Below are positions 1-52,198 of a stretch of DNA of 52,198 nucleotides, in pieces (the first letter of the stretch is position 1; each line of letters starts with the position of its first letter). Source of the stretch: a virus. The DNA lies in the IMG/VR virus record IMGVR_UViG_3300012927_000002, positions 1 to 52,198 of that record, one strand, 5' to 3'. The notes under the pieces are model-generated. The model ran no database searches. It worked only from the letters and a program-made list of their open reading frames with translations, and was not told the origin of the DNA. The translations under genes and the position numbers were made by a program.

Positions 1-123
1 CAGCTGCAGGCCGGTGGTGGCCGTCGAGGTCGCCGCGCCGGTTACGCGCCCGGCGGCGAGCTGGCGCGCCGGCGTCGCCGTCTTCTTGGGCACCCCGACC
101 GCGTTACCCCAGTCGAGGATGGG
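1..123. repeat. Terminal direct overlap, identical to 52076-52198 (circular closure or terminal redundancy)
   Basis: The string cagctgcaggccggtggtgg...ccccagtcgaggatggg is read at both window ends. One ORF crosses the junction in frame. Confidence 0.95.

Positions 124-20537: not shown

Positions 20538-20541
<4 letters not shown>
20041..20541 (-). CDS. RuvC-like Holliday junction resolvase
   Basis: 166 aa. MITLVAIDPGTTESAYV (Asp), VLVIEMV (Glu) and GVTGDVWSALAVA (Asp) match the RuvC-fold acidic residues as remembered. Confidence 0.6.
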
Positions 20542-20899
<358 letters not shown>

Positions 20900-20903
<4 letters not shown>

Positions 20904-21184
20904 TTGCGCGCTCGCATGTTGCGGGCCATCCACGACGACCACACCGCGTCATCGCACTCGACTTCACCGCCGGGCAATGCGAGGACGTGGACGCGAACCG
21001 TGCCGTAGAAGTCCAGCACGGTATCGCCGGTGGGGCCATTGAGCGCCAGCTCCCCGAGGCCGCCCGCCGTGCCCCAGCGTCGGATGTTGTAGCAGTCCGT
21101 GATCACGATCAGATCCTGAATCCGAGCGACCTTGCCCACGTAGACCCATCCACGATCCGCGATCACGATTTGGTATTCACTCAT
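20900..21184 (-). CDS. Conserved-looking hypothetical protein
   Basis: 94 aa. MSEYQIVIADRGWVYVGKV...NIRRWGTAGGLGELALNGPTGDT reads like a conserved phage domain, but I cannot name the family with confidence. Confidence 0.55.
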
Positions 21185-21679: not shown

Positions 21680-22224
21680 CACGCCGCCACCTTCGCGGCT
21701 TCGGCCTTCGCGCGCGCGGCGTCGATCTTGTCCTGGAGCTCGGCGAGCTGGGACATGACCGCATCCCCGGTCGTGAAGGCTGGGAGGCCGAGCGCGAACA
21801 GGGCCTCGCACATCTCGCAGCTTCGCGACGGGTCGCCCTCGAGCTTGCCGTCGAGGCCGCACGCGCAGAGCGCCCATCCCGCGGGCTGCTCAGCCGCGGT
21901 GACGGTAAGCGCCACCAGATCCGTCATCGCCTGAAAGATCCGGTCGTAGCCCTTTGACTTGGAGCGGAGAGAGTTGGACTTCTTCCAGTATTCACGCTGC
22001 TTTAGGCTGTACTCACTGAGCGGAGTACGCTCCCAGGCCGACAGGAACTCGGCTCGCTTCTCGCCCTCCAGCTGAAATGTGGCCGCCAGCCGCTGGGCGC
22101 GCTCCGCGCTGATCACGCGATGGGAGGCGGACTCGACGTTTCCGTAGGTCGAGAGCTTCACGCCGATTGCCTGCGCAACCTCGCGTTGTTTCATGGCTTT
22201 TTCGATCCTGTACGATCGAGACAT
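21679..22224 (-). CDS. XRE-family helix-turn-helix transcriptional regulator (repressor/Cro-like) with a C-terminal Cys cluster
   Basis: YRIEKAMKQREVAQAIGVKLSTYGNVESASHRVISAERAQRLA is a classic HTH_3 pattern. It is the first gene of the minus-strand operon and faces the AT-rich control region. The start is uncertain (22224, 22257 or 22194). Confidence 0.75.
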   Translation of the reverse strand: MSRSYRIEKAMKQREVAQAIGVKLSTYGNVESASHRVISAERAQRLAATFQLEGEKRAEFLSAWERTPLSEYSLKQREYWKKSNSLRSKSKGYDRIFQAMTDLVALTVTAAEQPAGWALCACGLDGKLEGDPSRSCEMCEALFALGLPAFTTGDAVMSQLAELQDKIDAARAKAEAAKVAA

Positions 22225-22415
22225 TATACCAAAGTCGGACTTTTGGGATGAATTCATAATGTCATGTTGAACGCAACATGAGGGGTTAGTCAAGGTCTTC
22301 GAGTAATGAGCTAACTAACCCGTTGGATAAGTTGAAGTATATAGTAATTTTACCCGGCCATTCAATCCTGGTTGGTTACACTTTCTATCGAATGTTAGTT
22401 GTGATCTCTATATTA

Positions 22416-22459
22416 CTCTCCTTCTCCCCGGTCCTAAAGAGGACCGGTGGAGAAGAGAG
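22416..22459. other. Long imperfect stem-loop (about 19 bp, loop aaag)
   Basis: ctctccttctccccggtcct-aaag-aggaccggtggagaagagag. There are two single-nt bulges and no flanking U-tract on either strand. Confidence 0.7.
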
Positions 22460-22726
22460 AGGGGTGAGGGGACAAGAGTAAGGGGGAAACGACTCCCGGA
22501 CCCCGGTCGACCTGGAATCCGGGTGCTGACGTACCCACCTAGCACAAGCCGACGACGATTCGCATTAAACTGCTGGAATCGTTCACATGTCGCGGTTTTT
22601 TGCTGGCCTATGACAAAAAAGTCATGATGACTGTATGCACCAAGACATTTCTGTCGCACTTAGTGTACTTTGAACACGATTTTTGGTGAGAGGTAGCCGA
22701 GCTGTCGCACCCCCACCCCACGCGAC

Positions 22727-22984
22727 GATATCCTTAGGCCCTGCACCTGGTTACACCCCACGTCCTGCTCCCACGTCCTGCTCATGGCCCTGCACCAGCG
22801 GCCCGAACCGAGCTCGATGCGGTCACCGGGCGCCGATGCCACATGCCCAAAATCGCGCCAGAACAGGGCTAGGCTGCACGTTCGATGCACCGGCCGCATA
22901 ACCACCGGACCCACGCACTGAACGCGCCTCCGGTCATCCTATCGGAGCACTGCCGGAGCAGTAGGGCCTAAGGCTTAGGATATC
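22727..22984. repeat. 16-nt inverted repeat pair flanking about 220 nt
   Basis: gatatccttaggccct (22727-22742) versus agggcctaagg[cttagg]atatc (22963-22984). The interior contains the tandem cacgtcctgctc x2. Confidence 0.7.
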
Positions 22985-23196
22985 AACGCGTGATCATGCG
23001 TTACAGATCGCCAAGTGATTGAAATCGTTGGTGTGACAGGTCGTCACGTCGACCGTTGCTTTTCGCCACGATCGCTCCCATATCCTAACGCTAGCTACTG
23101 TAGCGCCGCCTAAGCATATGGGATTTTGAGGTTGGCACGAAGATCGCAGATGGATTTCTCGTCGCTAGATTCCCCCCACCGTAGGAGACACGCACC

Positions 23197-23337
23197 ATGC
23201 ACACCCTTCCCACCACGTCGCCGTACGCCACCATGACCGCCGCCGAGGTACTGGCTACCGTGGCCGCCCGGCTCGAGCAGTACGCCGCGGAGGACGCCGA
23301 GCGCGCCGCCCGGTTCGCCGCCCTGATGTCCGCCTAA
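23197..23337 (+). CDS. Hypothetical small early protein (46 aa)
   Basis: Hand-translated as MHTLPTTSPYATMTAAEVLATVAARLEQYAAEDAERAARFAALMSA. It is preceded by taGGAGacacgcaccATG, the same SD context as the other early genes. Confidence 0.5.
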   Translation: MHTLPTTSPYATMTAAEVLATVAARLEQYAAEDAERAARFAALMSA

Positions 23338-23370
23338 CCCTAACCCTAACCCACGTCACACACAGGAGAT

Positions 23371-25972: not shown

Positions 25973-26617
25973 ATGCCCAAGATCATCCGTAATCGTTACA
26001 CGTCTGCCATCATCCACTCGAGTGAGCTTCCGACGTGGCGTGAAGCTGTCGAGGAGGCGATCGAAGCCCGCGCCGACCTGACCGACGCCAACCTGACCCG
26101 CGCCGACCTGACCGGCGCCAACCTGACCGACGCCGACCTGACCGGCGCCAACCTGACCGACGCCGACCTGACCGACGCCAACCTGACCCGCGCCGACCTG
26201 ACCGGCGCCAACCTGACCCGCGCCGACCTGACCGGCGCCAACCTGACCGACGCCGACCTGACCGGCGCCAACCTGACCGACGCCGACCTGACCGACGCCA
26301 AGGAAGATTTCCTCGCCGTCCTCGACGCGGCCCCGAACGAGGTTGCTGGCCTCCTCCTGGCGCTGCGCGAGGGCCGCATCGACGGCTCGCACTACGAAGG
26401 AGCGTGCTCCTGCCTAAAAGGCACGATCGCCAACGTTCGGGGCTGTCGCTATACCGAACTCGGCGACGCCGATGCGTTGCAACCAAACAGCGATCGCCCC
26501 AGCGAGCGGCTGTTCATGGGTATCTCGCCTGGCCACCTACCGAGCATCAACCCCGTCGCAAAAATCGTTGAGGGGTGGATCCTGGAGTGGCAGTCCGCGA
26601 ACGGCGGGGCGGCGTGA
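25973..26617 (+). CDS. Pentapeptide-repeat protein with a Cys-containing C-terminal domain
   Basis: 214 aa. About 15 consecutive A(D/N)LT(D/G/R) pentapeptides ([25 protein letters not shown]...) are flanked by unique N- and C-terminal regions. Confidence 0.9.
26071..26300 (+). repeat. Near-perfect 30-nt tandem repeat (about 7.7 units) encoding the pentapeptide array
   Basis: cgccgacctgaccg(a/g)cgccaacctgacc(c/g)(g/a) is repeated head to tail. The array is in frame and has no spacers. Confidence 0.95.
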
Positions 26618-31969: not shown

Positions 31970-32157
31970 TTCCTCAGCTCCTTCTCGACGAGATCCCAGA
32001 ATTCCGCCTCGCCGCCAGCGAGCTTCGCCGATAGGATCTCGCGGATCACCTTGAGCTGCGCGGCGGTCGATGCAGCCGCGGCGAGGTTGCGCTGGTTCAT
32101 GCTGAGCGCCATCGCTGCCCTCCATGCGGCGTTCTTCGCCGCTTCGATGTCGCTCAC
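31966..32157 (-). CDS. Hypothetical helical protein
   Basis: 63 aa from GTG 32157 (GTGA overlap): VSDIEAAKNAAWRAAMALSMNQRNL... Confidence 0.4.
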   Translation of the reverse strand: MSDIEAAKNAAWRAAMALSMNQRNLAAAASTAAQLKVIREILSAKLAGGEAEFWDLVEKELRK

Positions 32158-32327
32158 CGCCCGACCTCGGCGCATGCGCGCTCGATGACCTGCGCCTGCG
32201 TGATGCTGCGCTCCTTGGCGGCCTTGGCGATGCGCTCGTAGACCGGTATAGGCAGACCGATCGCGGCCCAGCGCTTCTTGTAGTTGATGGTGTACTCGCG
32301 CCGCTTGGCGCTTTGCTCGGGCGTCAC
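32154..32327 (-). CDS. Arc/RHH-like small protein (57 aa; below the track cutoff)
   Basis: Hand-translated as VTPEQSAKRREYTINYKKRWAAIGLPIPVYERIAKAAKERSITQAQVIERACAEVGR. GTGA overlaps at both ends. Confidence 0.4.
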   Translation of the reverse strand: MTPEQSAKRREYTINYKKRWAAIGLPIPVYERIAKAAKERSITQAQVIERACAEVGR

Positions 32328-40328: not shown

Positions 40329-43300
40329 CTAGAGCTGGTTGACGACGCCGCGCATCGCCAGGCCGGACGGCTCGATCAGGTAGACCCGGGCCCCGCTGGT
40401 GAACGTGGCCACCAGGTCGTGCGAGTAGACGTTCGCCGCGAGCCCGGCGTTGTCGGCCGGAAGCACGGTGATCGCGACCTGGGGCGTGACCGCGCCCGCC
40501 GTGATGACGATGCCCGCGCCGAGCGACTTGCCAACCAGTGCCGGATCCGGGTCGCCGCGGTTGAGCTTGACCTGCCACTCGAGCGTGACCACCTGCCACT
40601 TTCCCGTGGTGAGGTCAACTGGTAGTCCGGTGTCGGGGTCAAGTACACCAACTGTGATCACACGGCTCTCGCCGCGGAGCATCTGGAGGTAGAGCTGCAT
40701 CGTCCTGCCTTCGCGGGTGAGAAGACGTGGCGCCCGCGCGACCACGATCGGTCGAAGGTCGACCAGCGGCGGGGTGAAGTTGAGGGCGGCCGAGAACGGC
40801 GACGCCTCCCCGCCCTGCTGCGCCGTCCGCACACGGAGCAGGAAGTCGGGGAAGTACGGCGCCCACAGCGGCGGCGCGGGGGCCTGTGGGATGACCAGGA
40901 CCGGGCCGACCGCCTCGCCTGGCGCCGTCCGGCGAGCTCGCAGCGGGACCATGACCGGCTGCGCCAGCCAGCTGTTGACCGCGGGCACCACCGGCGGCGG
41001 CACGATCGCCACGGGCGCGACCTCGCCGGCGGTCTGCCGCGAAATCGTGCGGGCGAGCGCGTGCGGGAAGCTCGGCGACCAGGAGGTGACGAGCGGGACC
41101 GCCGCCGGCGCGGGCGTCGTGACCGGCGCCGTCTCGCCGCCCTGGAGGCGCACCAGGGCGCGAGGCGCGGCGTCCGGGAAGCTGGGCGCCCAGCTCGAGA
41201 TCGACGGCACCGAGGCCGCGACCACGACGACCGGGGGCGCCGTCTCGCCGGCCGTGATCCGGATCGGCGACCGGGGGATCAGGTCAGGCGCGCTCGACCA
41301 CCACGGCGCCGGGGCGAAGTTCAACGCCGGCGCGGTCTCGCCGGATGGCTGCCGACGTGAGGCGCGACCGATCAAGTCGGGGAACGCGGGGGCCCAGCTC
41401 AGCAGCGGCGCAGCCGGCGCCGGAAGCCGCGGAGGCGCAGTCTCGCCGCCCTCGAGAACCCGGCGCGCGCGCCGCGGGATCTCGTCCTGCCGATACAGCC
41501 AGTCAAACGGCTGCAGGTCGGTCGTCACCGCCTGGAACGCGAGGTGCCAGAGGATCGCGCCCTCGGGGCCGTCGCCGCTGACCGTGCCCTGCGTGCTGTA
41601 CTTGTAGGTCCCGGCGATGTCGACCAGGCGGGTGAACACCTCGATCTGGATATAGCCAGCCGGGTCGCAGTCGCCCTCGGCGCAGACCCGCGCGATCCGC
41701 GTGTAGCCTGCCGGCGTGGTGAAGATGTGGCCCTGGTTGACGTTGCCGTTGCCGCCAACGATCGCGACGAGGAGGGCCTTGGCGGTGGTGGTGACCGCCG
41801 CGCTCGTGATCGTCGCCGAGGTCCCGTTGGCGACCTCGAGCACGCTCGACGACTGCAGGATCGGCGTGTTGAACAGCTCGAGGCCGGCGATCACCACCTC
41901 GTCTTGCTGGCCGCCGATGTTGCCGATCGCCGCCGACCAGGTGTGCCCCGCGCCGCCAGCCCCTCGCGCGATCGAGACCGAGAACGAGGAGCTGGGGAAC
42001 GCGTCGTAGTTGCGCGGCGCGCTCGGGATGTAGCTGTACGTATTGCCGAACGAGTCGGTCGCCTGGTTCGGCGCGGTGGCCTGGGTGCCGCGCGCGAAGA
42101 TCGCCAGGAACGTCGAGTACAACGGCTGCGTGTTGACCGTGCGGACGAGCGTGTGTGTGCCGGTCCCGGCGTCCGTGAGGTCGACCGCGGTGCCGGCCTT
42201 GGCGAGCGCCGGCGACAGCGCGAGCTTCACGGTCGTCGTGCTCGGCACGATCATGTAGTAGAGCGTCGTCGAGTCGGACCCCGCCGGCAGCGTCCCGGTC
42301 GTCGAGAGCCGGAACGGGCCGGCCGTCACGATCATCCCGTGCGTGCCGGTGGTGAGCGTGTCGGTCGCCGCGACCGCGGTGAACGTGAGGTCCGTGCCGA
42401 ACGTGGTGAGCGGCGTGGCGAAGGCCAGCTGGTTGAGGATGTTCTGCCGGACCGCGCCGTCTCCGACGGTCAGCGACCTGCCGCCGGACGGCGGCGGCGA
42501 GACCGCCCCGGCCGCAGCGTGGAGCGGATGGCGGGCCCGGTTGATGATGTCGGGGAACGTCGGCGCCCACGACAGCGGCGAGACGGGAACGGTCAGGACG
42601 ATCGCGACAGGCCCCATCATCCCGCCGACGTTGAGCGGGCTCCGGGCTCGCGGAACCAGATCCGGAAAGACCGGCGTCCAGCTGAGGGGCGGCGCCGGGA
42701 TGTTCGTGATGACCGTGACCGGGCCGGTGACGCCGCCGACGTTGAGCGGGCTCCGGGCTCGCGGCACCAGATCGGGGAACTGCGGCGTCCAGGACATCGC
42801 TGGCGCCGCGGCGGCGAGCGTGATCTTCTCGGGCGCGCACTGGCCGCCGACGTTGAGCGGCGCGCGCGCCCGAGGGATCTGATCCGGGAACGTCGGCGCC
42901 CACGACAGCGGCGGGACGGGCGCGCTCGGCAGGACGGGAGGCGCGACCAGGGCGGCGACCAGGAGGGCGGCGCTGGCGACGCGGCGCACCGGCATCTCGT
43001 GGATGCACGGAGACCACGACATGTCGGGCGTCAGGTCGTCGACGTTGCTCAGCGTTCCGACGAAATCGAACGTCGGCCCCGGCGTGAAGCTGCCCAGGTA
43101 GAGCGTGTCCGTGACGTCGTGGTACGGCCCGGCCAGCGTGTACGAGAACGTGCCGTTTCCGGTCAGCGCGCCCGAGATCGTGACGGTCTTCGCGCGCGCA
43201 TCGTCGATGACCGTGATCGGCGTACCACCGAGCCAGGTCAGCGCCTGGTCGAAGACCGTGGCGTCCCCGGGGGCGGTGAACTTCTGGAGGTGGGTATCGA

Positions 43301-43487
43301 CCAGCCAGATCCCGCCGTGCGCGCCCGAGAACAGGATGTGGAAGTTGCCGCCGGTGTACGTCGCGCTCGCCGCGGTCGGCGTGAACACGAACCGGGTCAC
43401 CCCGAAGTTGAACGCCCTGGCGTACCCGTTGTACGTGCCCGGCGCGAACGAGCGCGGGATCGACGGTACCGGCAGGACCACCGTCAT
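40329..43487 (-). CDS. Giant tail-fibre/receptor-binding-type protein with two arrays of SWxPxFPDxxPR modules
   Basis: 1052-aa single ORF. Layout: N-terminal about 160 aa, hydrophobic segment (167-190), 4 repeats, about 320-aa central beta-rich region, about 7 degenerate repeats, and a C-terminal about 120-aa Ig/BppU-N-like domain. Confidence 0.65.
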   Translation of the reverse strand: MTVVLPVPSIPRSFAPGTYNGYARAFNFGVTRFVFTPTAASATYTGGNFHILFSGAHGGIWLVDTHLQKFTAPGDATVFDQALTWLGGTPITVIDDARAKTVTISGALTGNGTFSYTLAGPYHDVTDTLYLGSFTPGPTFDFVGTLSNVDDLTPDMSWSPCIHEMPVRRVASAALLVAALVAPPVLPSAPVPPLSWAPTFPDQIPRARAPLNVGGQCAPEKITLAAAAPAMSWTPQFPDLVPRARSPLNVGGVTGPVTVITNIPAPPLSWTPVFPDLVPRARSPLNVGGMMGPVAIVLTVPVSPLSWAPTFPDIINRARHPLHAAAGAVSPPPSGGRSLTVGDGAVRQNILNQLAFATPLTTFGTDLTFTAVAATDTLTTGTHGMIVTAGPFRLSTTGTLPAGSDSTTLYYMIVPSTTTVKLALSPALAKAGTAVDLTDAGTGTHTLVRTVNTQPLYSTFLAIFARGTQATAPNQATDSFGNTYSYIPSAPRNYDAFPSSSFSVSIARGAGGAGHTWSAAIGNIGGQQDEVVIAGLELFNTPILQSSSVLEVANGTSATITSAAVTTTAKALLVAIVGGNGNVNQGHIFTTPAGYTRIARVCAEGDCDPAGYIQIEVFTRLVDIAGTYKYSTQGTVSGDGPEGAILWHLAFQAVTTDLQPFDWLYRQDEIPRRARRVLEGGETAPPRLPAPAAPLLSWAPAFPDLIGRASRRQPSGETAPALNFAPAPWWSSAPDLIPRSPIRITAGETAPPVVVVAASVPSISSWAPSFPDAAPRALVRLQGGETAPVTTPAPAAVPLVTSWSPSFPHALARTISRQTAGEVAPVAIVPPPVVPAVNSWLAQPVMVPLRARRTAPGEAVGPVLVIPQAPAPPLWAPYFPDFLLRVRTAQQGGEASPFSAALNFTPPLVDLRPIVVARAPRLLTREGRTMQLYLQMLRGESRVITVGVLDPDTGLPVDLTTGKWQVVTLEWQVKLNRGDPDPALVGKSLGAGIVITAGAVTPQVAITVLPADNAGLAANVYSHDLVATFTSGARVYLIEPSGLAMRGVVNQL
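40773..41507 (-). repeat. Degenerate coding repeat array 2 (about 7 units of about 35 aa: SW(A/S)P(A/S)FPD..PR.....GGE(T/A)AP)
   Basis: Read from translation residues 661-905. Confidence 0.7.
42482..42917 (-). repeat. Coding tandem repeat array 1 (4 units of about 112 nt: PLSW(A/T)P.FPD..PRAR.PLNVGG)
   Basis: Near-identical DNA segments, e.g. gggaacgtcggcgcccacgacagcggcg at about 42553 and about 42887, and ccgccgacgttgagcgggctccgggctcgcgg twice. Confidence 0.8.
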
Positions 43488-43493
43488 CGGTGG

Positions 43494-43772
43494 CTACCCT
43501 ACAAGCTCGACGCCGCGAAGGAAGACCCTACGGCCCTCCATCTTCTCGAGCTTGGCCTCGAACGGGACACAGGTTCCGGCGTCCGAGCACGGGCCGCAGG
43601 TCGCGCGCATGCACAGCCGGCAGAACCCGCCGATGTCCGCCTCGCTCTGCCCGGCCTGGAAGTGCACCACGCGCGAGCAGTGGCAGCACGTCAGCGTGTG
43701 CATCTCGACCGTCGGGGCATCCGGGTCGACGATGATGGCCGCGCCGCGAAAGCTGGCCTGCGACCGCGACAT
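43494..43772 (-). CDS. Cys-rich small protein (10 Cys; probable zinc binding)
   Basis: 92 aa from ATG 43772: ...MHTLTCCHCSRVVHFQAGQSEADIGGFCRLCMRATCGPCSDAGTCVPFEAKLEKME.... Confidence 0.5.
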   Translation of the reverse strand: MSRSQASFRGAAIIVDPDAPTVEMHTLTCCHCSRVVHFQAGQSEADIGGFCRLCMRATCGPCSDAGTCVPFEAKLEKMEGRRVFLRGVELVG

Positions 43773-43773
43773 G

Positions 43774-44223
43774 CTAGAGCTCGAACACCGTGGCGTTGGC
43801 CCGGCACGACACCAGGGCGCCGGCGGTCGGCGTCCGCACGGCGAGCCCGTTCGCGCTGGTCGCCGGGGTGTACAGCTCACTGCCCGGAGGGGCGACCCAC
43901 CGGTAGGTGGAGCGCTGGTTGAGGCCGATCGACAGCCTGACCTGGTTGGCCGTCAGCGTCGGGTCGGCGGAGTGGTTCTGGCCGGCCGTGATCGTCGGCG
44001 TGCCGTCCGCGGGATTCGCCGCCGTCAGCGTGATCGACGTGTTGGTACCCTGGGTGGTGCACGCCTGGACCTCCCACACGAAGCCGAAGTCACCCGGGGT
44101 GGCCTCGGCGGCCCCGAACATGATGTCCGACATCATGCTCCGCCGGGTGGTCGCCGGGGACCCCCAGCTGCCAACCGACAGTGTGGCGGATGCCGTCCGG
44201 GCCATGACGATTTGGATCTGCAT
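43774..44223 (-). CDS. Hypothetical beta-rich protein
   Basis: 149 aa: ...DFGFVWEVQACTTQGTNTSITLTAANPADGTPTITAG...RSTYRWVAPPGSELY.... No family named. Confidence 0.5.
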   Translation of the reverse strand: MQIQIVMARTASATLSVGSWGSPATTRRSMMSDIMFGAAEATPGDFGFVWEVQACTTQGTNTSITLTAANPADGTPTITAGQNHSADPTLTANQVRLSIGLNQRSTYRWVAPPGSELYTPATSANGLAVRTPTAGALVSCRANATVFEL

Positions 44224-44261
44224 GACCCCGGGTTACACGAGCGGGACCCCTGGGTCCACAG

Positions 44262-44441
44262 CTACCGGCGCGCGCGGCCGTTGCCCCAGCCGCGGACCGG
44301 GCCGTTGCCCTCCTTCATCGTGTTGATGTCCCGGTTCTGCAGCTCGATGTCGACCTCCGAGATCGAGCGCCGTGCGTCTTCGGTCTCGTTCTGGCTCAGG
44401 AGCTTCGCGATCGCGTTGTTGGGCGGCAGCACGTAGGACAT
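44262..44441 (-). CDS. Hypothetical small protein (59 aa; below the track cutoff)
   Basis: Hand-translated as MSYVLPPNNAIAKLLSQNETEDARRSISEVDIELQNRDINTMKEGNGPVRGWGNGRARR. Third-position GC is high, and it is the first ORF after the divergent intergenic region. Confidence 0.35.
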   Translation of the reverse strand: MSYVLPPNNAIAKLLSQNETEDARRSISEVDIELQNRDINTMKEGNGPVRGWGNGRARR

Positions 44442-44460
44442 GAGGCCAGGCTACCACGCC

Positions 44461-44489
44461 TTGACACCGGTAGCTTTGTGTTGCATTGA
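44461..44489 (+). promoter_or_regulatory. Candidate promoter for a leaderless RHH-cassette transcript
   Basis: TTGACA-17 nt-CATTGA, then 7 nt to ATG 44497. The -10 is weak and no SD is present. Confidence 0.3.
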
Positions 44490-44496
44490 TTAGCTA

Positions 44497-44778
44497 ATGC
44501 CGCCAAAGAAACCACCACTCCCATCGGCCATCAACATCCGCCTCAAGCGCGATGAGGCCGCCGCCGTCATCGCCGACGTCCAATCGATCAGGGAGAGTGC
44601 CGACGTTCCGCTCACCGTAAGCGGATACGCCAAGCACGCGCTCCTGTCGTACGGCAAACTCCGCCGGATGGAGATCAAGCTCCACATCATGCTCGAGGAG
44701 TACAGCAAGGAAGAATCCGGGCTGCCCAACAGGGACTTCGTCGCCCGCTGTCTCACCATCGTAAAGGAGGCGTCATGA
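44497..44778 (+). CDS. Ribbon-helix-helix (MobC/CopG-like) protein
   Basis: 93 aa. PSAINIRLKRDEAAAVIADVQSIRESADVPLTVSGYAKHALLSYG has a strand-helix-helix pattern. GC is lower than in the flanking DNA. Confidence 0.55.
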   Translation: MPPKKPPLPSAINIRLKRDEAAAVIADVQSIRESADVPLTVSGYAKHALLSYGKLRRMEIKLHIMLEEYSKEESGLPNRDFVARCLTIVKEAS

Positions 44779-46022
44779 TCCCGCTCGTCTGCCTTACCGA
44801 TCCCACCGGCAGCTGGCGCTTTGCCGCCTACAAGTCCTCGCTCAAAGTGATCTCGCTGCAGCGCGAGGAGGTATCCAACGCCCACGGCCCTCACTCGACC
44901 TGGATCACCGTCCGCGGGATGACGACCAGCGGGCCGGGCACGCTCGGCATCATGGTCACCGGCGTGAACATCGCCGGTGCCAGGGATCCCGTGTTCCATG
45001 TCGCCAACCTGACCGAGGCCGAAGAGATCCTCCGAGTCGCGGTGCGCCACCACCTGGCCGAGGAGAAGCGCCGCGCTGAATCTGATGCACAGGAGATCGC
45101 CGAGGAGGTCACCCAGGATCGAATCGTCGACCAGCTCGAGAAGCTGGGCAAGGAGAACGAGCCCCCGCCCGGCTGGCAGGGGCGGGTACTCGCCGCGGTG
45201 GATCCGGATGCGCAGGCCGCCTGCCTTCGGAAGCAGGCCGCCAAGCTCGACGAGGCGAACCAGCTGATCACGGACATGATGCGGGTCATTAACGGCAAAG
45301 TCGGGCCGATGCATTGCCCCGCGTACAGCGCCGCGCAGCAGAGTATCGCGGCAAGGGTCAACGTCTACTTCGGCGCGCCGGCGGCGCCCGGCCCGACGCC
45401 TCAGGAGATCCGGAATGCTGAAATCGAGGCTGGACTCCGCGAACTTCTCACAAAGTTCGCAGCCGGCTATGTCGATGCCGGATGCCTGATCAGGTTGCGT
45501 GGCCTGGTCGGTCCTTCGTCCAGCACGGAGCCCACGCCGACCGAGATCGCCCGGCGACTGCTGGACGCGTGGCAGGCCGCGTGCGAGGCGCCGGCCGGCT
45601 CTCTGCGTGTATCACCCGAGGAGTTCTCCGCGTGGTCTGGGGCCACGAAGGACATCCTCATCGCCAACGGCCTGGAGTGGAGCGTGGCCCGGGATTGCTA
45701 CGGAATTCCCGACCCCATCGGGGGTGAACGTCGGGTAGGCAATCGGGTCGACGCACGGACCGCGGCGTCCGTGGCCACCGACCAGATCGTGAAACTCTAC
45801 GACAGCCTCTTGTCCATGACCGAGAAGCGCGACCGCATCGCTGGGGAGAAGGCCGACCTCAAGGCGAAGGTGGCTGCGCTCGAGGTCAAGCTGGAGCGCT
45901 TCACCCTGTGGATTATCACGCACTCCAAGCATGGCCCGAACGGCAGCGGTACAAGAGGACCGTGCGAGCCCGACTGCACCAAGTGCGCGGCCGAGAAGGA
46001 CTACTACCGCCTCAGGGCTTGA
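44775..46022 (+). CDS. Large hypothetical protein coupled to the RHH gene (coiled-coil segments, C-terminal CEPDCTKC)
   Basis: 415 aa. ATGA overlap, preceded by AAAGGAGG. I recognise no domain. The 3' end overlaps the endolysin 3' end by 11 nt. Confidence 0.65.
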   Translation: MIPLVCLTDPTGSWRFAAYKSSLKVISLQREEVSNAHGPHSTWITVRGMTTSGPGTLGIMVTGVNIAGARDPVFHVANLTEAEEILRVAVRHHLAEEKRRAESDAQEIAEEVTQDRIVDQLEKLGKENEPPPGWQGRVLAAVDPDAQAACLRKQAAKLDEANQLITDMMRVINGKVGPMHCPAYSAAQQSIAARVNVYFGAPAAPGPTPQEIRNAEIEAGLRELLTKFAAGYVDAGCLIRLRGLVGPSSSTEPTPTEIARRLLDAWQAACEAPAGSLRVSPEEFSAWSGATKDILIANGLEWSVARDCYGIPDPIGGERRVGNRVDARTAASVATDQIVKLYDSLLSMTEKRDRIAGEKADLKAKVAALEVKLERFTLWIITHSKHGPNGSGTRGPCEPDCTKCAAEKDYYRLRA

Positions 46023-46596
46023 CGCGAAGCAGGTAGCCGCGGTGCTGCGCCTTCGGCCACGTCACGTTGTGCGCGTCGACGACGGCCCCGGTCGTGGACC
46101 GAATCGCGTTGATGCGGCCGTCCGGCCCGTGGCACTCGACGACATCGAGGAGCGAGAACTTCGGCCTCGCCGGATCCCACTGGCGCACGCGGTTCACGCC
46201 CGTGCAGATCTGGACGTGGCCCACCCAGGGCTCGGGGTGACCGGACAAGTGGATGGTCGGGTACGCCAGGAGGTCGCCGGGCCGCGGGTCGTCCCTCACC
46301 AGCTCGAACAGCTCCGCGGCGTGGAATGCGTCCTCGATCGCGCTGTTCGAGTTGAGGTCGTCGACCACGGAGGCGCCGCCGGGGAAGTTGGCGTCCGCGC
46401 GCCAGCCGCGGTTGAACATCGGGCGGTGGCCTGGGAGCCCGTAGCAGTGGCGGACCGCGAACGAGAAGCAGTCGTAGACGCCACGCTCCGCGTCCTCGTC
46501 TCGCGCACCGAGCAGGTAGATCCCCGACCCGACCAGGACCAGGGCCTCGGCGACAGCGCGCGCGGCGGTGCGTGCCGGCCGCGGTCCGGTGTTCAC
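46012..46596 (-). CDS. Endolysin candidate: NlpC/P60- or CHAP-like cysteine peptidase with a SAR-like N-terminal segment
   Basis: 194 aa from GTG 46596 (GTGA overlap with the holin-like gene). AVAEALVLVGSGIYLLGA is a weak TM segment. Candidate Cys is in GVYDCFSFAVRHCYG and candidate His in WVGHVQIC. Confidence 0.5.
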   Translation of the reverse strand: MNTGPRPARTAARAVAEALVLVGSGIYLLGARDEDAERGVYDCFSFAVRHCYGLPGHRPMFNRGWRADANFPGGASVVDDLNSNSAIEDAFHAAELFELVRDDPRPGDLLAYPTIHLSGHPEPWVGHVQICTGVNRVRQWDPARPKFSLLDVVECHGPDGRINAIRSTTGAVVDAHNVTWPKAQHRGYLLRVKP

Positions 46597-47042
46597 GGCG
46601 CGACAGCCTTCTGCGCCGCGGACTCCATGCCCGGGATGTGGGCCTTGAGCCACTCCCAGACGCCGGCCGCCGTGGCTGCCGTGGTGAGCGCGGTGACGAC
46701 CAGGCCGAGCGACACGCCGGCGCCAGCCGCGAGCGCGATACCCAGCGTGCCGGCGAGCGACATCAGGAACGCCAGGACGAGCCCGCCGAACGGCGTCTTG
46801 AGCACCTCCGGCCCGAAGCGGCGCAGCGGGTAGACCACGCCGATCAGCACGACGCCAACGACGATGCCCCACTGCTTGCCGGTCACCGCCGCGTACAGCG
46901 CCTTGAGCCAGCCTGCCGCGTCGACGTCCGGCGCCGGCGGCGCGTCCGCGGCGGCCCACGCGTTACGGGTGAGGACGAGGAGCGTCAGGAACGACGCCAG
47001 GAGAAGGAACCCGGACCGAAGGAGTCGTGACAGGAGTTGCAT
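46593..47042 (-). CDS. Holin-like multi-pass membrane protein
   Basis: 149 aa with 3-4 hydrophobic segments (FLLLASFLTLLVL, WGIVVGVVLIGVV, LVLAFLMSLAGTLGIALAAGA, LGLVVTALTTAATAAGV). It lies directly upstream of the endolysin gene. Confidence 0.55.
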   Translation of the reverse strand: MQLLSRLLRSGFLLLASFLTLLVLTRNAWAAADAPPAPDVDAAGWLKALYAAVTGKQWGIVVGVVLIGVVYPLRRFGPEVLKTPFGGLVLAFLMSLAGTLGIALAAGAGVSLGLVVTALTTAATAAGVWEWLKAHIPGMESAAQKAVAP

Positions 47043-47361
47043 GGCTTCCGGTGTCGCATGCCGCCCTGTCAGCGTACAAGCCGGAAAGGGCGTCCAGAAG
47101 CCCCGCTAGTCGCGTGGCGTTGCCCGGGTCGAAGCACAGGGCACCCGGGCCGAACGCCGCGGCACATCGCGCGCTGTCAATTCGTTCGGGTCTTACCGGG
47201 AGCGGAGGGAGGGTTGCCGGGCACAGCTGGCGGATCTCCACCGGCACCGGAACCCTGACCTCCACCGGATGATCCACGGTCACGGTTCGCGTACAGCCGA
47301 TTGGTGATGCTGTCGTACATGTCGTCAGCAACAGGAACACCAGCCTTTGCGAGCTTTTCAA
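46963..47361 (-). CDS. o-spanin candidate (Pro-rich lipoprotein-like ORF overlapping the i-spanin gene out of frame)
   Basis: TTG start preceded by aAAGGAGatctccTTG. The signal-like N-terminus is KSSQRLVFLLLTTC, and the mature part is Pro-rich and Cys-containing. The lipobox is atypical (T at -1). Confidence 0.45.
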   Translation of the reverse strand: MKSSQRLVFLLLTTCTTASPIGCTRTVTVDHPVEVRVPVPVEIRQLCPATLPPLPVRPERIDSARCAAAFGPGALCFDPGNATRLAGLLDALSGLYADRAACDTGSHATPVTTPSVRVPSPGVVPDAPRPHP

Positions 47362-47623
47362 GGAGATCTCCTTTGTCCGCGTACGCTTTGTCCAGGTTCA
47401 TCTTGAGGCTCGAGGCGGTCGCCACGGCCTCCTTGAGCTGCATCACGGCCGTGGCCTGCGCGGACGCCGCGAGGTCGGCGGCGCGCTGCGCCGACTCCGT
47501 CTTGACCTCCGCGATCCGGGCGCGGTCCGCCGCGTCATTCGCGTCGCCGCGGGCGCGCCAGGCGAAGAACCACCCGGTAGCAGCGACCAGGCCGCCGGCG
47601 ATCCCGAGGATGACGGTCAGCAC
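47177..47623 (-). CDS. i-spanin candidate (N-terminal TM plus periplasmic coiled coil)
   Basis: 148 aa. MLTVILGIAGGLVAATGWFFAW is followed by a helical Ala/Asp/Lys-rich region and a Gly/Pro tail. Confidence 0.55.
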   Translation of the reverse strand: MLTVILGIAGGLVAATGWFFAWRARGDANDAADRARIAEVKTESAQRAADLAASAQATAVMQLKEAVATASSLKMNLDKAYADKGDLLEKLAKAGVPVADDMYDSITNRLYANRDRGSSGGGQGSGAGGDPPAVPGNPPSAPGKTRTN

Positions 47624-48148
47624 CTAGCACCCCTTCGCGAGCAGCATCGTGGAGATCAGTACCCAGACCGCGCTCACCCCGCCCACGACCTTGAGCGCGA
47701 TCAGGCGCCAGTGGTCTCGGCGCTTCTTGGCCTCCTCGATCGCCGACAGCTCTCGGGCCTCGTGGATCTTCAGCTCGGTGGTGACCGTAGCGGTCCGGGT
47801 CGTCGAGGTCTCGGTCATCTCGATCGCGCGGTCGGCCACCAGGATCTCGAGCTGGCCGCCCATCTTCGCGGTGTCCGCCGACAGCTCCGACAGGTGGCCA
47901 GCGAACCCATCCATCTTGGCGTCCATCGCCCGGAGATCGCTGCGCAGCTCGGCGCGGACGGCGGAGACCTGCCCCGCGAGCTCGGAGGTGGCGGACTTCA
48001 CGCGGCCGTCGACCTTCGAGATCGCCGCCCGCGTGCTCTGCGGCAGCGGGGTCAGCTCGTTGTCCCAGTCCATCTCGGGCGGCGCGGTCTGCGCGCGAAC
48101 GCCGGCCGGCGGCGTCTTGACCCGGTAGCGGTCGCGTTCGTCGGTCAT
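47624..48148 (-). CDS. Tail-anchored coiled-coil membrane protein (lysis-associated? function unknown)
   Basis: 174 aa. C-terminal TM WRLIALKVVGGVSAVWVLISTMLLA. The stop lies immediately before the i-spanin GTG. Confidence 0.5.
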   Translation of the reverse strand: MTDERDRYRVKTPPAGVRAQTAPPEMDWDNELTPLPQSTRAAISKVDGRVKSATSELAGQVSAVRAELRSDLRAMDAKMDGFAGHLSELSADTAKMGGQLEILVADRAIEMTETSTTRTATVTTELKIHEARELSAIEEAKKRRDHWRLIALKVVGGVSAVWVLISTMLLAKGC

Positions 48149-50894: not shown

Positions 50895-52198
50895 GCCCTC
50901 CGGATCAGGACGGAGCCCGGGGTGACGTAGTGGATCTGCGCGTCGAGCGGAAAGGCATCATCGACGGCCTCGTAGTCGGCGGCCGGCGTGGTGATCACCG
51001 CGTTGCCAACCCCGGCCTTGAACATCGCGATCTTGAACAAGGTCGCGCGCACGACGCCGCCCGACCAACTCAGGCTGTCGTTGTAGATCCCGCCCGGGTT
51101 CGCAGAGCCGAGCCCGTCGGCCAGGACGTCGAGCCCAACCACCGACTGCACGGCGCCGGCGCGCAGCGGCGTGAGACCGCGGCCGGCGTAGACGATCTCG
51201 CCGGCGAGGTGGCCGACGATGGCATCACGGACCGGCGTGACCAGCGGGCCGCCCGAGAAGATCTTGTCGGTCCCCAGCGGCGCGACCGGGGGGAGCTTCT
51301 CGAGGATGACCTTGTTGCTCGCCGACAGCGACTCGATGCGGAACTCGGTTCCGTCCTGCGCGCTCGCGACGCCCTGGAACGACAAGCGGTGGCCGGCGTG
51401 GAGCGAGGCGGGCAACGTCGCCGAGAACGTGAGCTCGCGCGTGGTCGAGTTGAACGCCGAGACGGTGAATCCGGCGCTGTCGTCCCAGTCGAACGCGAAC
51501 GCGGCCTGACCGTTGGACGTCAGGCGGATCTCGATGTTCCGGGGATCCGGGATCGTGGTCAGCATGCGGAGCCCGCCGCCGGTCCCGGTGACCTGGAACG
51601 GGGCCAGGGTCTGGATGTACGCCTTGACGGTGGCCAGGTCGGTCGGGGTCATGGTCCGCGCCGCGCCGACGCCGGCGTAGAACGCCACCACGTCGATCGT
51701 GCCGCGGCCCGCGCGCTCGGGGTAGGCGTAGGCCGTGGCCACCGTGTTGAGCGAGGCGAGCGCCCACTTCACGAAGTCCGCCTGGTTGCCGCCGCTCGGC
51801 GTCTGCGAGAACGTCGACAGCACGCGACCGCGATAGCTGCCGAACTGCTCGGCGTCGAAGCCGTCGAGGTCGAGATCCTTCTGCAGAACCACGGCGGTCT
51901 GGATGCCCGCCGGCGGCGCCAGGAAGTTGAGCACCTCGCCGGCGAGGAGCCGGGTCTGGGAGCCGGTGTCGATGCCCACGATGTCGGCGTCGGCGAAGCT
52001 GTCGGGATCCGTGATGATGCCGGGGATCGTGACATTGGAGTTGAGCTTGAACAGGAGCCCGGTGTTGGCGTGCTGCAGCTGCAGGCCGGTGGTGGCCGTC
52101 GAGGTCGCCGCGCCGGTTACGCGCCCGGCGGCGAGCTGGCGCGCCGGCGTCGCCGTCTTCTTGGGCACCCCGACCGCGTTACCCCAGTCGAGGATGGG
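50891..52198 (-). CDS. Baseplate J-like protein (Mu gp47 type), 3' part; the 5' end lies at 1-330 across the circular junction
   Basis: The reading frame is open to the window end. 52076-52198 duplicates 1-123. The position between the gp25-like and gp48-like genes fits baseplate J. Confidence 0.8.
   Translation of the reverse strand, partial: PILDWGNAVGVPKKTATPARQLAAGRVTGAATSTATTGLQLQHANTGLLFKLNSNVTIPGIITDPDSFADADIVGIDTGSQTRLLAGEVLNFLAPPAGIQTAVVLQKDLDLDGFDAEQFGSYRGRVLSTFSQTPSGGNQADFVKWALASLNTVATAYAYPERAGRGTIDVVAFYAGVGAARTMTPTDLATVKAYIQTLAPFQVTGTGGGLRMLTTIPDPRNIEIRLTSNGQAAFAFDWDDSAGFTVSAFNSTTRELTFSATLPASLHAGHRLSFQGVASAQDGTEFRIESLSASNKVILEKLPPVAPLGTDKIFSGGPLVTPVRDAIVGHLAGEIVYAGRGLTPLRAGAVQSVVGLDVLADGLGSANPGGIYNDSLSWSGGVVRATLFKIAMFKAGVGNAVITTPAADYEAVDDAFPLDAQIHYVTPGSVLIRRA
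52076..52198. repeat. Terminal direct overlap, identical to 1-123
   Basis: See the first feature. Confidence 0.95.

Follow-up and report, generated by a model that had tools for sequence, protein, structure and literature searches.

The window analysed here, the whole 52,198-nucleotide (nt) stretch of IMG/VR virus record IMGVR_UViG_3300012927_000002, is the complete circular genome (~52.1 kb, G+C content (GC) 67.7%) of an uncultivated soil phage whose head and tail genes are Mu-like. Its late region contains an oppositely oriented two-gene operon (44442-46022), in which a gene for a likely ribbon-helix-helix (RHH) protein of 93 amino acids (aa; gene 1, 44497-44778, plus strand) is followed by a gene for an orphan protein of 415 aa (gene 2, 44775-46022, plus strand). 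Comparison of this locus across related phages indicates that the RHH regulator and its promoter constitute the core, while the C-terminal third of the regulator and all of the cargo are exchangeable. We favour, at about an even chance of its being correct, the interpretation that the locus is a self-contained variable accessory operon, anchored by the RHH gene at a recombination hot spot, with gene 2 as its exchangeable accessory cargo.

A conserved regulator gene heading variable cargo

Comparison of the window with the sister phage L007 shows that the proteins flanking the locus are 91-98% identical, as against 59% for gene 1 and 18% for gene 2. The approximately 92% DNA identity of the two genomes ends at 44653 (codon 52 of gene 1), where the RHH core also ends, and restarts at 46016, at the stop codon of the endolysin gene (46012-46014). 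Two islands of similarity persist within this gap, corresponding to the segments of gene 2 termed modules C (78% DNA identity) and E (58 nt, 93%) below. As the left breakpoint falls beyond the DNA-binding domain, gene 2 appears to have been exchanged as one unit with the C-terminal third of the RHH protein.

Every gene 2 homologue for which genomic context is available follows an RHH gene with a 4-nt overlap, in six complete contexts as well as in L012, a partial contig in which only the start of gene 2 is seen; the overlap is ATGA or GTGA in all six of the complete pairs. The RHH gene itself is more widespread, being found in the same slot in L013, L021-L027 and L029, and in at least eight lineages its homologues head between one and seven unrelated orphan genes. 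In the relatives this slot follows the DnaB early operon and a few small genes on the minus strand, one of which codes for a 59-aa protein, and the operon within it is convergent on the endolysin gene. The cargo in these phages includes one lipoprotein and tiny single-pass membrane proteins. The latter are 36-69 aa in length (L013 10702-10893; L021 11404-11613; L022 9407-9616; L025 9439-9612; L026 8291-8401) and three of them are mutually homologous; the window operon does not code for one.

Both the RHH gene and the promoter-like element described below were found at the slot in every relative found, and this presence throughout suggests a conserved regulator that anchors a variable cargo hot spot rather than a sporadic insert. 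The first-pass annotation of this DNA, made from the letters alone, had described a moron-like accessory cassette; this description holds for the diversity of the locus and the variation of its cargo, but not for the RHH gene and promoter. Its further supposition that the two genes belong together is upheld by the conserved pairing. Co-occurrence of the pair elsewhere, for which it had proposed a search outside phage tail regions, was not seen beyond this phage family: scans with a gene 1 pattern did not find the pair in 185,579 species genomes (GTDB) or, within IMG/VR, outside this family, while a scan of metagenomes with the same pattern yielded one more locus of the same kind.

The ratio of nonsynonymous to synonymous substitution rates (dN/dS) is 0.15-0.26 for gene 1 and 0.35-0.56 for gene 2 (63-172 aligned codons), and both open reading frames (ORFs) can therefore be considered real genes under purifying selection. 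An invertible or mobile segment was considered and rejected, there being no meaningful direct or inverted flanking repeats; a 12-nt repeat pair around the gene for the 59-aa protein is at chance level and is not kept in L001.

Promoter layout and organization of the operon

The divergent intergenic region upstream of gene 1 (44442-44496, 55 nt) contains, on the plus strand, the -35-like hexamer TTGACA (44461-44466), a 17-nt spacer, the hexamer CATTGA at the -10 position (44484-44489) and 7 further nucleotides before the ATG of gene 1. CATTGA resembles TATAAT poorly. The pattern TTGACA-N16-18-CATNNN-N5-8-ATG has a single occurrence in the window, where 0.03 would be expected by chance. TTGACA is invariant in 10 of 11 related lineages, in which the layout TTGACA-N17-CATnnn-N6-12-ATG is kept down to approximately 25-35% identity between the RHH proteins; L026 has a looser variant, with no more than a TTG-type -35 element. 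The relatives have CATTGA, CATTAG, CATAAA, CATGAT or CATCTT at the -10 position with the same spacing. In the distant lineages the layout is seen once the start codon is set at the conserved methionine of the MPKKK or MxKxSRK motif, and it then reads TTGACA-N17-CATGAT-N7-ATG in L021 and L022, TTGACA-N17-CATCTT-N9-ATG in L025 and TTGACA-N17-CACCAT-N12-ATG in L027. Across six close lineages the stretch from TTGACA to ATG is conserved even where the upstream DNA is unrelated, as seen in the 200-nt insertion in L001 and the DUF6948 gene upstream in L012 and L016.

Gene 1 has no Shine-Dalgarno sequence and an in-frame stop codon lies 3 nt upstream of its ATG; a Shine-Dalgarno sequence is likewise absent ahead of the RHH gene in all lineages compared. 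By comparison, gene 2 follows a GGAGG in five of the six pairs, the exception being L013, and AGGAGA is found ahead of other early genes of the phage. The absence of a Shine-Dalgarno sequence on gene 1, taken with the conserved promoter layout, is a signature of a leaderless or near-leaderless first cistron, and the most probable transcription start is the A of the gene 1 ATG or a position no more than a few bases from it.

Much of this organization had been read correctly in the first-pass annotation, including the 55-nt divergent region with its spaced hexamers and without a Shine-Dalgarno sequence, and the autonomy it had attributed to the unit finds support in the conserved promoter-like element. 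At the level of gene calls, genes 1 and 2 are indeed the sole plus-strand genes between 40 and 52 kb. The two genes overlap at ATGA, and the Shine-Dalgarno sequence of gene 2 (AAAGGAGG, 44763-44770, plus strand) is situated inside the 3' end of gene 1, 4 nt ahead of the gene 2 ATG. At its own 3' end gene 2 overlaps the convergent endolysin gene tail to tail by 11 nt (46012-46022), leaving no room for a terminator between the two, and none was found there; the RHH-led operon and the endolysin gene likewise abut or overlap in the relatives. The GC dip claimed for the 5' end is real but modest (0.61-0.63 at 44200-44950 versus 0.677 for the genome), gene 1 itself having a GC of 0.609. No Rfam family, tRNA or tandem repeat was found.

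Two elements in this region are candidate operators. The inverted repeat GCTAC-N15-GTAGC (44450-44474), which may serve as such a site, brackets the -35 element and is separated by 9 nt from the ATG of the divergently oriented gene for the 59-aa protein; the pattern has three matches in the window against 0.22 expected. A perfect 10-bp palindrome, ATTAGCTAAT (44489-44498), overlaps the start codon of gene 1 and is imperfect in L001, L012 and L016. Together with GGTAGCT at 44468-44474 it makes up two (G/A)(G/T)TAGCT boxes spaced 21 bp apart, which might equally be bound by a regulator. AGC is found at spacer positions 6-8 in eight of the 11 lineages and is a further candidate operator element.

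GCTACC occurs at 28 sites genome-wide against 12 expected. The notion of a GCTAC-based regulon was nevertheless dropped, as the sites are mostly co-oriented with coding and pairs of GCTAC are no more common than chance predicts. Elsewhere in the genome (24134-24186, plus strand), an AGGAGA-led gene is preceded by a promoter-like TTGACA that has GCTAGC immediately before it, GCTACC within its spacer and GCTACA where the -10 element would lie; this arrangement resembles the GCTAC repeats of the RHH promoter.

Gene 1 encodes a likely NikA/Mnt-like RHH protein

A profile search recovered a family of 14 members for gene 1, with a conserved core of the form I-x-I-R-L-K-x-x-E ... P-x-T-V-S-A-Y-A-K-H-A-L-L-S. 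The protein is laid out as a Lys-rich N-terminal arm, a predicted strand (~11-16), helix A (18-34), helix B (43-51) and C-terminal helices (53-92). When the 14-sequence family (A7) was compared by means of hhalign with NikA(1-51), the RHH domain solved as PDB 2BA3, a score of 21.5 was obtained, as against 9.0 +/- 1.9 (maximum 16.3) for 300 shuffled NikA sequences. The register of this alignment places the strand INIRLK on RTLRFS and helix B, LTVSGYAKHALLS, on LTVSAYIRNAALN. The best-scoring family member (P0021) matched the Pfam NikA-like family PF21983 with an E-value of 0.0042 (17.6 bits, under the curated cut-off of 27), whereas the window protein itself had no match in Pfam.

The AlphaFold2 (AF2) monomer of gene 1, with a predicted local distance difference test score (pLDDT) of 71, has an extended segment at 1-17, helices at 18-34 and 43-51 with a loop between them, and two confident C-terminal helices; the strand of an RHH domain pairs in the dimer and cannot form in such a monomer. 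The C-terminal helices are modelled with the highest confidence of the entire protein, rather than as disordered, and this helical extension is presumably arranged like that of Mnt. Together these observations make it likely that gene 1 codes for a NikA/Mnt-like RHH protein, and the hhalign score in particular lends support to the RHH pattern that had been noted at the outset.

Gene 2 encodes an orphan mosaic protein

The gene 2 protein is mostly helical, with a long helix at residues 327-383. An exhaustive hidden Markov model search of 1.84 billion representatives returned 14 hits, among which are six true homologues besides the query (P0002, P0007-P0011); a trichohyalin-like fish protein among the hits is spurious. 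Sequence and profile searches against Pfam, NCBIfam, PADLOC, PHROGs and PDB, as well as a tblastn search against 50,697 phage records, were empty or returned coiled-coil noise. In PADLOC-DB 2.0 nothing reached E <= 1 with gene 1, gene 2 or four homologues; the Pfam domains ANT/KilAC and P22_AR_N/C were not matched in gene 2 or its six homologues, and no relaxase family of Pfam matched gene 2. The initial impression of a protein without a recognizable domain thus stands, and no known structural or fibre-assembly family was matched in the libraries searched. The suggestion that the pair constitutes a toxin-antitoxin or defence module fared differently, with neither a toxin nor a defence family identified in Pfam, NCBIfam, PADLOC, PHROGs or PDB.

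Alignment of the homologues revealed that gene 2 is composed of six short modules (A-F, all on the plus strand) that are shuffled, deleted or replaced between phages. Module A (44775-45065) is an N-terminal strand-rich domain plus a helix and is missing from the 190-aa version in L007. Module B (LGxEHxPPxGWQxRVLAA; 45120-45200) also occurs in the unrelated proteins P0013 and P0014. Module C (LIxDMxRVINGxMG...ARVN; 45243-45371, approximately residues 157-199) is the only one common to all seven members of the family. Module D (FxAWSGATKDxLI; 45546-45710) is confined, within the gene 2 family, to the window protein and is found elsewhere in the Cys-rich orphans P0012, P0015 and P0016. The coiled-coil module E (KRDRIAGEKADLKAKV; 45816-45884) contains the 58-nt island shared with L007. 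Module F (HGPNGxGxxGPCxxDCxKC; 45930-45998), a His/Cys knuckle that includes the previously noted CEPDCTKC motif (residues 395-402), recurs in P0009 and P0010 and, at an internal position, in P0008, so that it is C-terminal in three proteins and internal in one. The close relatives have length variants of 415, 315 and 190 aa, the shortest of which (L007) lacks more than half of gene 2 in an otherwise approximately 92% identical phage. In frame, the GC at third codon positions (GC3) of gene 2 is 0.84.

Proposed function and alternative explanations

In light of the above features, we propose that a leaderless mRNA would be produced from the TTGACA/CATnnn promoter, with gene 1 translated without a leader and gene 2 by coupling through GGAGG and the ATGA overlap. 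The RHH protein would most likely bind repeats in and around its own promoter and repress it, autorepression being the expected behaviour of an RHH first gene. Because the convergent genes abut without a terminator, such autorepression would also limit head-on transcription into the lysis genes. Gene 2, in turn, is fast-evolving and lacks an enzymatic signature, and would most likely be an accessory factor directed against the host or competing phages, acting in counter-defence, exclusion or host takeover, rather than a virion or lysis component; we infer this conflict-related role, as well as the timing of expression, from the context of the locus.

A bolder form of this proposal, which we consider rather doubtful, is that the RHH gene and the leaderless promoter are a fixed "landing pad" on which cassettes are exchanged in a soil-phage family not described before. 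Gene 2 would then represent a new modular effector family, for counter-defence or superinfection exclusion, whose modules A-F of approximately 25-55 residues are shuffled between phages, and the RHH protein would be an Aca-like brake that also shields the convergent lysis genes from transcriptional collision. If the interpretation as an RHH-anchored accessory operon is right, the combination of TTGACA-N17-CATnnn, an ATG within 6-12 nt and MPxKK would provide a handle for harvesting the accessory genes of an uncultivated soil-phage lineage, in the same way as aca genes served to discover anti-CRISPRs. The locus would also show, in a bacterial virus, a regulatory design that is leaderless and places the RHH gene first, and it would clearly illustrate domain-scale mosaicism within one phage gene. 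If wrong, it would amount to one more orphan gene pair, and no long-standing question has been opened by it so far.

Several points weigh against the interpretation as an RHH-anchored accessory operon. Foldseek searches of PDB and BFVD with the gene 1 model gave no significant RHH match, and a consensus sigma-70 promoter scanner made no call at 44442-44496, where CATTGA would be a poor, non-canonical sigma-70 -10 element. The repeat GCTAC-N15-GTAGC is conserved in L007, retains only its left arm in L013 and is absent from L001, L012 and L016, and GCTAC pairs are not enriched genome-wide. The AF2 model of gene 2, which was built from a two-sequence alignment, is unusable (pLDDT 40.6), so that its role is argued from context. 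Weak module-C-like segments in the cargo proteins L025_337 and L021_191 hint that gene 2 may in part be better conserved than freely exchangeable cargo would be. Furthermore, the regulator gene usually takes the last position in the acr-aca operons described, unlike in the window, where it comes first.

The position of the RHH gene ahead of a second gene that it overlaps by 4 nt, its constant association with gene 2 homologues and the joint swapping of its C-terminal third with gene 2, from a left breakpoint past the DNA-binding domain, might also be accounted for by a type II toxin-antitoxin or abortive-infection-like module. In such a module the RHH protein would be both antitoxin and autorepressor, its C-terminal tail neutralizing a toxic gene 2 product. 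We consider this quite improbable: gene 2 and its homologues have no match to a toxin or defence family in Pfam, NCBIfam or PADLOC, they are made up of shuffled helical modules totalling 190-415 aa with no conserved catalytic core, and the RHH C-terminus is predicted to be helical, not disordered. Moreover, the type of RHH tail does not track the N-terminus of gene 2, with L007 and L013 sharing a tail and differing in module A; unrelated tiny membrane proteins come after the RHH gene in relatives, and the gene 1 pattern scan of the 185,579 species genomes did not find the pair in bacteria. Still less probable in our estimation is a switch of the immunity I kind, analogous to Arc/Mnt-Ant, in which gene 2 would be an antirepressor or regulator-binding protein gated by the RHH protein and would govern the choice between lysis and lysogeny or superinfection immunity. 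Its attraction is that the niche and behaviour of the locus recall the P22-like ant moron, with RHH repressors, high flux and a location beside tail-spike/fibre genes (PMC2629481), and that the phage genome includes genes for an HTH_3 regulator (21682-22293) and a ParB-like protein. Set against this are the lack of an ANT, KilAC or P22_AR domain in gene 2, an orientation opposing the late genes, unlike that of arc-ant, the failure to detect an integrase or transposase, and the want of a clear prophage copy in the same species genomes, where the gene 1 scan gave nothing and a scan for the Gp48-like protein only two metagenome-assembled contigs.

An unlikely, though the least improbable, alternative to an exchangeable accessory operon is that the locus is a core regulator of neighbouring late functions. 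The RHH protein would then control the divergent operon for the 59-aa, 149-aa, 92-aa and 1052-aa proteins, or would time lysis, acting through promoter occlusion or through antisense transcripts that enter the endolysin gene, and gene 2 would be a coiled-coil assembly or scaffolding factor. The presence of the RHH gene in every relative, beside the gene for the 59-aa protein and convergent on the endolysin gene, would suit such a role, as would the candidate operator 9 nt from the ATG of the former, the convergent genes without a terminator between them and the possible persistence of a module-C-like segment in distant relatives. However, an assembly factor is unlikely to shed more than half of its length where its structural neighbours are 91-98% identical, other lineages carry unrelated cargo, and no structural family was matched. 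That gene 2 is instead a decaying or functionless filler ORF, held open by the high GC, and that the RHH gene alone is functional, seems very hard to sustain. The large indels between close relatives (415, 315 and 190 aa) and a dN/dS relaxed relative to that of the neighbouring genes point in this direction, but the ratio of 0.35-0.56 is still below 1 over the aligned codons, conservation extends to the coupling signals, modules C and E persist across lineages and GC3 reaches 0.84 in frame.

Neighbouring genes

The 59-aa protein (MSYVLPPNNAIAKLL...GPVRGWGNGRARR; 44262-44441, minus strand), which heads the divergent minus-strand operon running from 44441 to 40009, has no family match and is conserved in every related phage (30-98% identity), always near the RHH gene. 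It is followed by genes for a strand-rich protein of 149 aa (43774-44223, minus strand) and a Cys-rich, probably zinc-binding protein of 92 aa with about 10 Cys residues (43494-43772, minus strand), both 91-95% conserved in close relatives, and for a protein of 1052 aa (40329-43487, minus strand) that is 70-76% identical in relatives. The last contains approximately nine copies of a motif of about 25 aa, P-L-S-W-A-P-x-F-P-D-x-x-P-R-A-R-x-P-L-x-x-G-G, clustered at residues ~196-330 and ~698-900 on either side of a central domain. None of these three proteins has a family match, and the label of "fibre operon" given earlier to 40329-44441 remains unverified.

On the other side, the convergent gene (46012-46596, minus strand), the last of a long late operon, codes for a putative CHAP/NlpC-like endolysin of 194 aa with a weak CHAP match (E-value 0.04) and a Cys/His pair. 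The endolysin slot is occupied by a CHAP-like protein in the window, by Amidase_2 in L021-L024 and by Peptidase_M23 in L025. Upstream of the endolysin, the lysis block (46012-48148, minus strand) codes for a membrane protein and an Rz/Rz1-like pair, in which an N-terminally anchored coiled-coil protein (47177-47623) is combined with an overlapping lipoprotein ORF (46963-47361). The first-pass label of "lysis cassette" for this block is, on these matches and this gene order, a reasonable one.

Genome and setting

An exact 123-nt direct repeat is found at the termini of the window (1-123 and 52076-52198), which shows that the contig represents a complete genome assembled as a circle; in other data sets the same genome was assembled as contigs of 52,032 and 51,975 bp. 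A long minus-strand unit starts with the HTH_3 regulator and continues through genes for the large terminase, a Mu-type portal, a gpT-type head protein, the tape measure and a DNA-circulation protein. It then crosses the ends of the window into those for baseplate J and a Gp48-like protein, and finishes at the lysis block. The early plus-strand genes include those for ParB-like, primase-like, cpYpsA and DnaB proteins, whereas RecT and a PD-(D/E)XK nuclease are encoded on the minus strand. Between the latter two lies another small ORF with an RHH-like pattern (32154-32327, minus strand; 57 aa, ...IGLPIPVYERIAKAAKERSITQAQVIERA...), with a TTGACA approximately 134 nt upstream. No integrase or transposase was detected in the phage genome, so that expression from a lysogen is without basis so far.

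Isolated phages are very distant from this one: the portal is at most 28% identical to those of Mu-like phages, and tblastn finds no match to the Gp48-like protein among them. In the species genome collection, a related Gp48-like baseplate gene was found on two contigs only, both from metagenome-assembled genomes. One (L027, DATEMW010000326.1), binned as Candidatus Methylomirabilota, has a Gp48-like gene 50% identical to that of the window and also an RHH homologue; the other (L028, JBQCJR010000034.1), binned as Kofleriaceae, has one that is 31% identical. With these two contigs as the sole carriers, the host assignment is not decisive.

Three further features of the genome deserve mention. 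A non-coding stretch of about 1 kb with lower GC (22294-23370; 0.52-0.55), which may be a control or origin region, separates the HTH_3 regulator from the first plus-strand early gene and holds the palindrome GCTAGCTACTGTAGC (23091-23105) and a telomere-like (CCTAAC)3 (23333-23350). An early gene (25973-26617, plus strand) codes for a pentapeptide-repeat protein (Pfam E-value 4e-28); given that pentapeptide-repeat proteins can act as DNA mimics, it could by analogy be a candidate for counter-defence or gyrase protection. Lastly, an ORF at 20538-20942 (minus strand) codes for a low-complexity protein of Gly-Tyr/Gly-Phe/Gly-Asp repeats (GYGFGYGDG...).

Comparison with known systems

The "ant moron" or immunity I region of P22-like phages (mnt, arc, ant, sieA) is a small, independently promoted unit among late genes, beside those for the tail spike or fibre. 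RHH repressors are in charge of it, with Arc as the autoregulating first gene of its operon, and its gene content, with ten types among sixteen genomes, turns over at a rate far above that of the syntenic morphogenetic genes; an influence on the late transcription that passes through it has been suggested (PMC2629481). The window unit is similarly hypervariable and has its own promoter-like element inside the late region of otherwise syntenic phages. It differs in that, apart from the RHH fold class, genes 1 and 2 are not homologous to Arc, Mnt or Ant, in having a single RHH gene that is conserved in all relatives, and in an operon that is antiparallel to the late genes, convergent on the endolysin gene and of a leaderless-type start. 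The phage also shows no sign of lysogeny, the HTH_3 regulator being present but an integrase, a transposase and clear prophage copies not being found. As regards the definition of a moron, the promoter-like element is conserved, a terminator was not found and the slot is filled in every relative found; only the cargo is moron-like.

Among RHH-based systems of other kinds, the relaxosome proteins of the NikA (R64)/MobC type provide the best sequence-level match for gene 1, and the overlap of a small RHH gene with a larger downstream gene is reminiscent of nikA-nikB. However, the match falls under the curated Pfam threshold, gene 2 does not belong to a relaxase family and the setting is a phage genome rather than a transfer origin. 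With RHH type II toxin-antitoxin systems (CopG/RelE, ParD/ParE, CcdA/CcdB) the operon shares the RHH gene in first position, the 4-nt overlap and presumed autoregulation, but no toxin fold or family was found for it, its second gene is long, mosaic and partly dispensable, and the pair was not found outside this phage family. In the libraries and relatives compared, the cargo has no homology to that of the ant moron or to toxin-antitoxin and known defence families, and these systems are accordingly to be taken as analogies or minority alternatives.

A second parallel is furnished by Aca14, an RHH regulator of anti-defence operons, for which a conserved inverted repeat overlaps the predicted -10 element and a role in restraining a strong early promoter has been proposed (PMC13551039). 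In the searches of Pfam, NCBIfam, PADLOC, PHROGs and PDB no known Acr or anti-defence homologue was recognized in the window operon, and at 415 aa its cargo is large for an Acr. By their description, the Aca14 operons nevertheless resemble it in linking a conserved small regulator to diverse, mostly unannotated cargo, and the window promoter has candidate repeats in and around it. On the strength of these analogies, the P22-like ant moron and the Aca14-regulated anti-defence operons appear to be the closest described analogues of the RHH-anchored operon.

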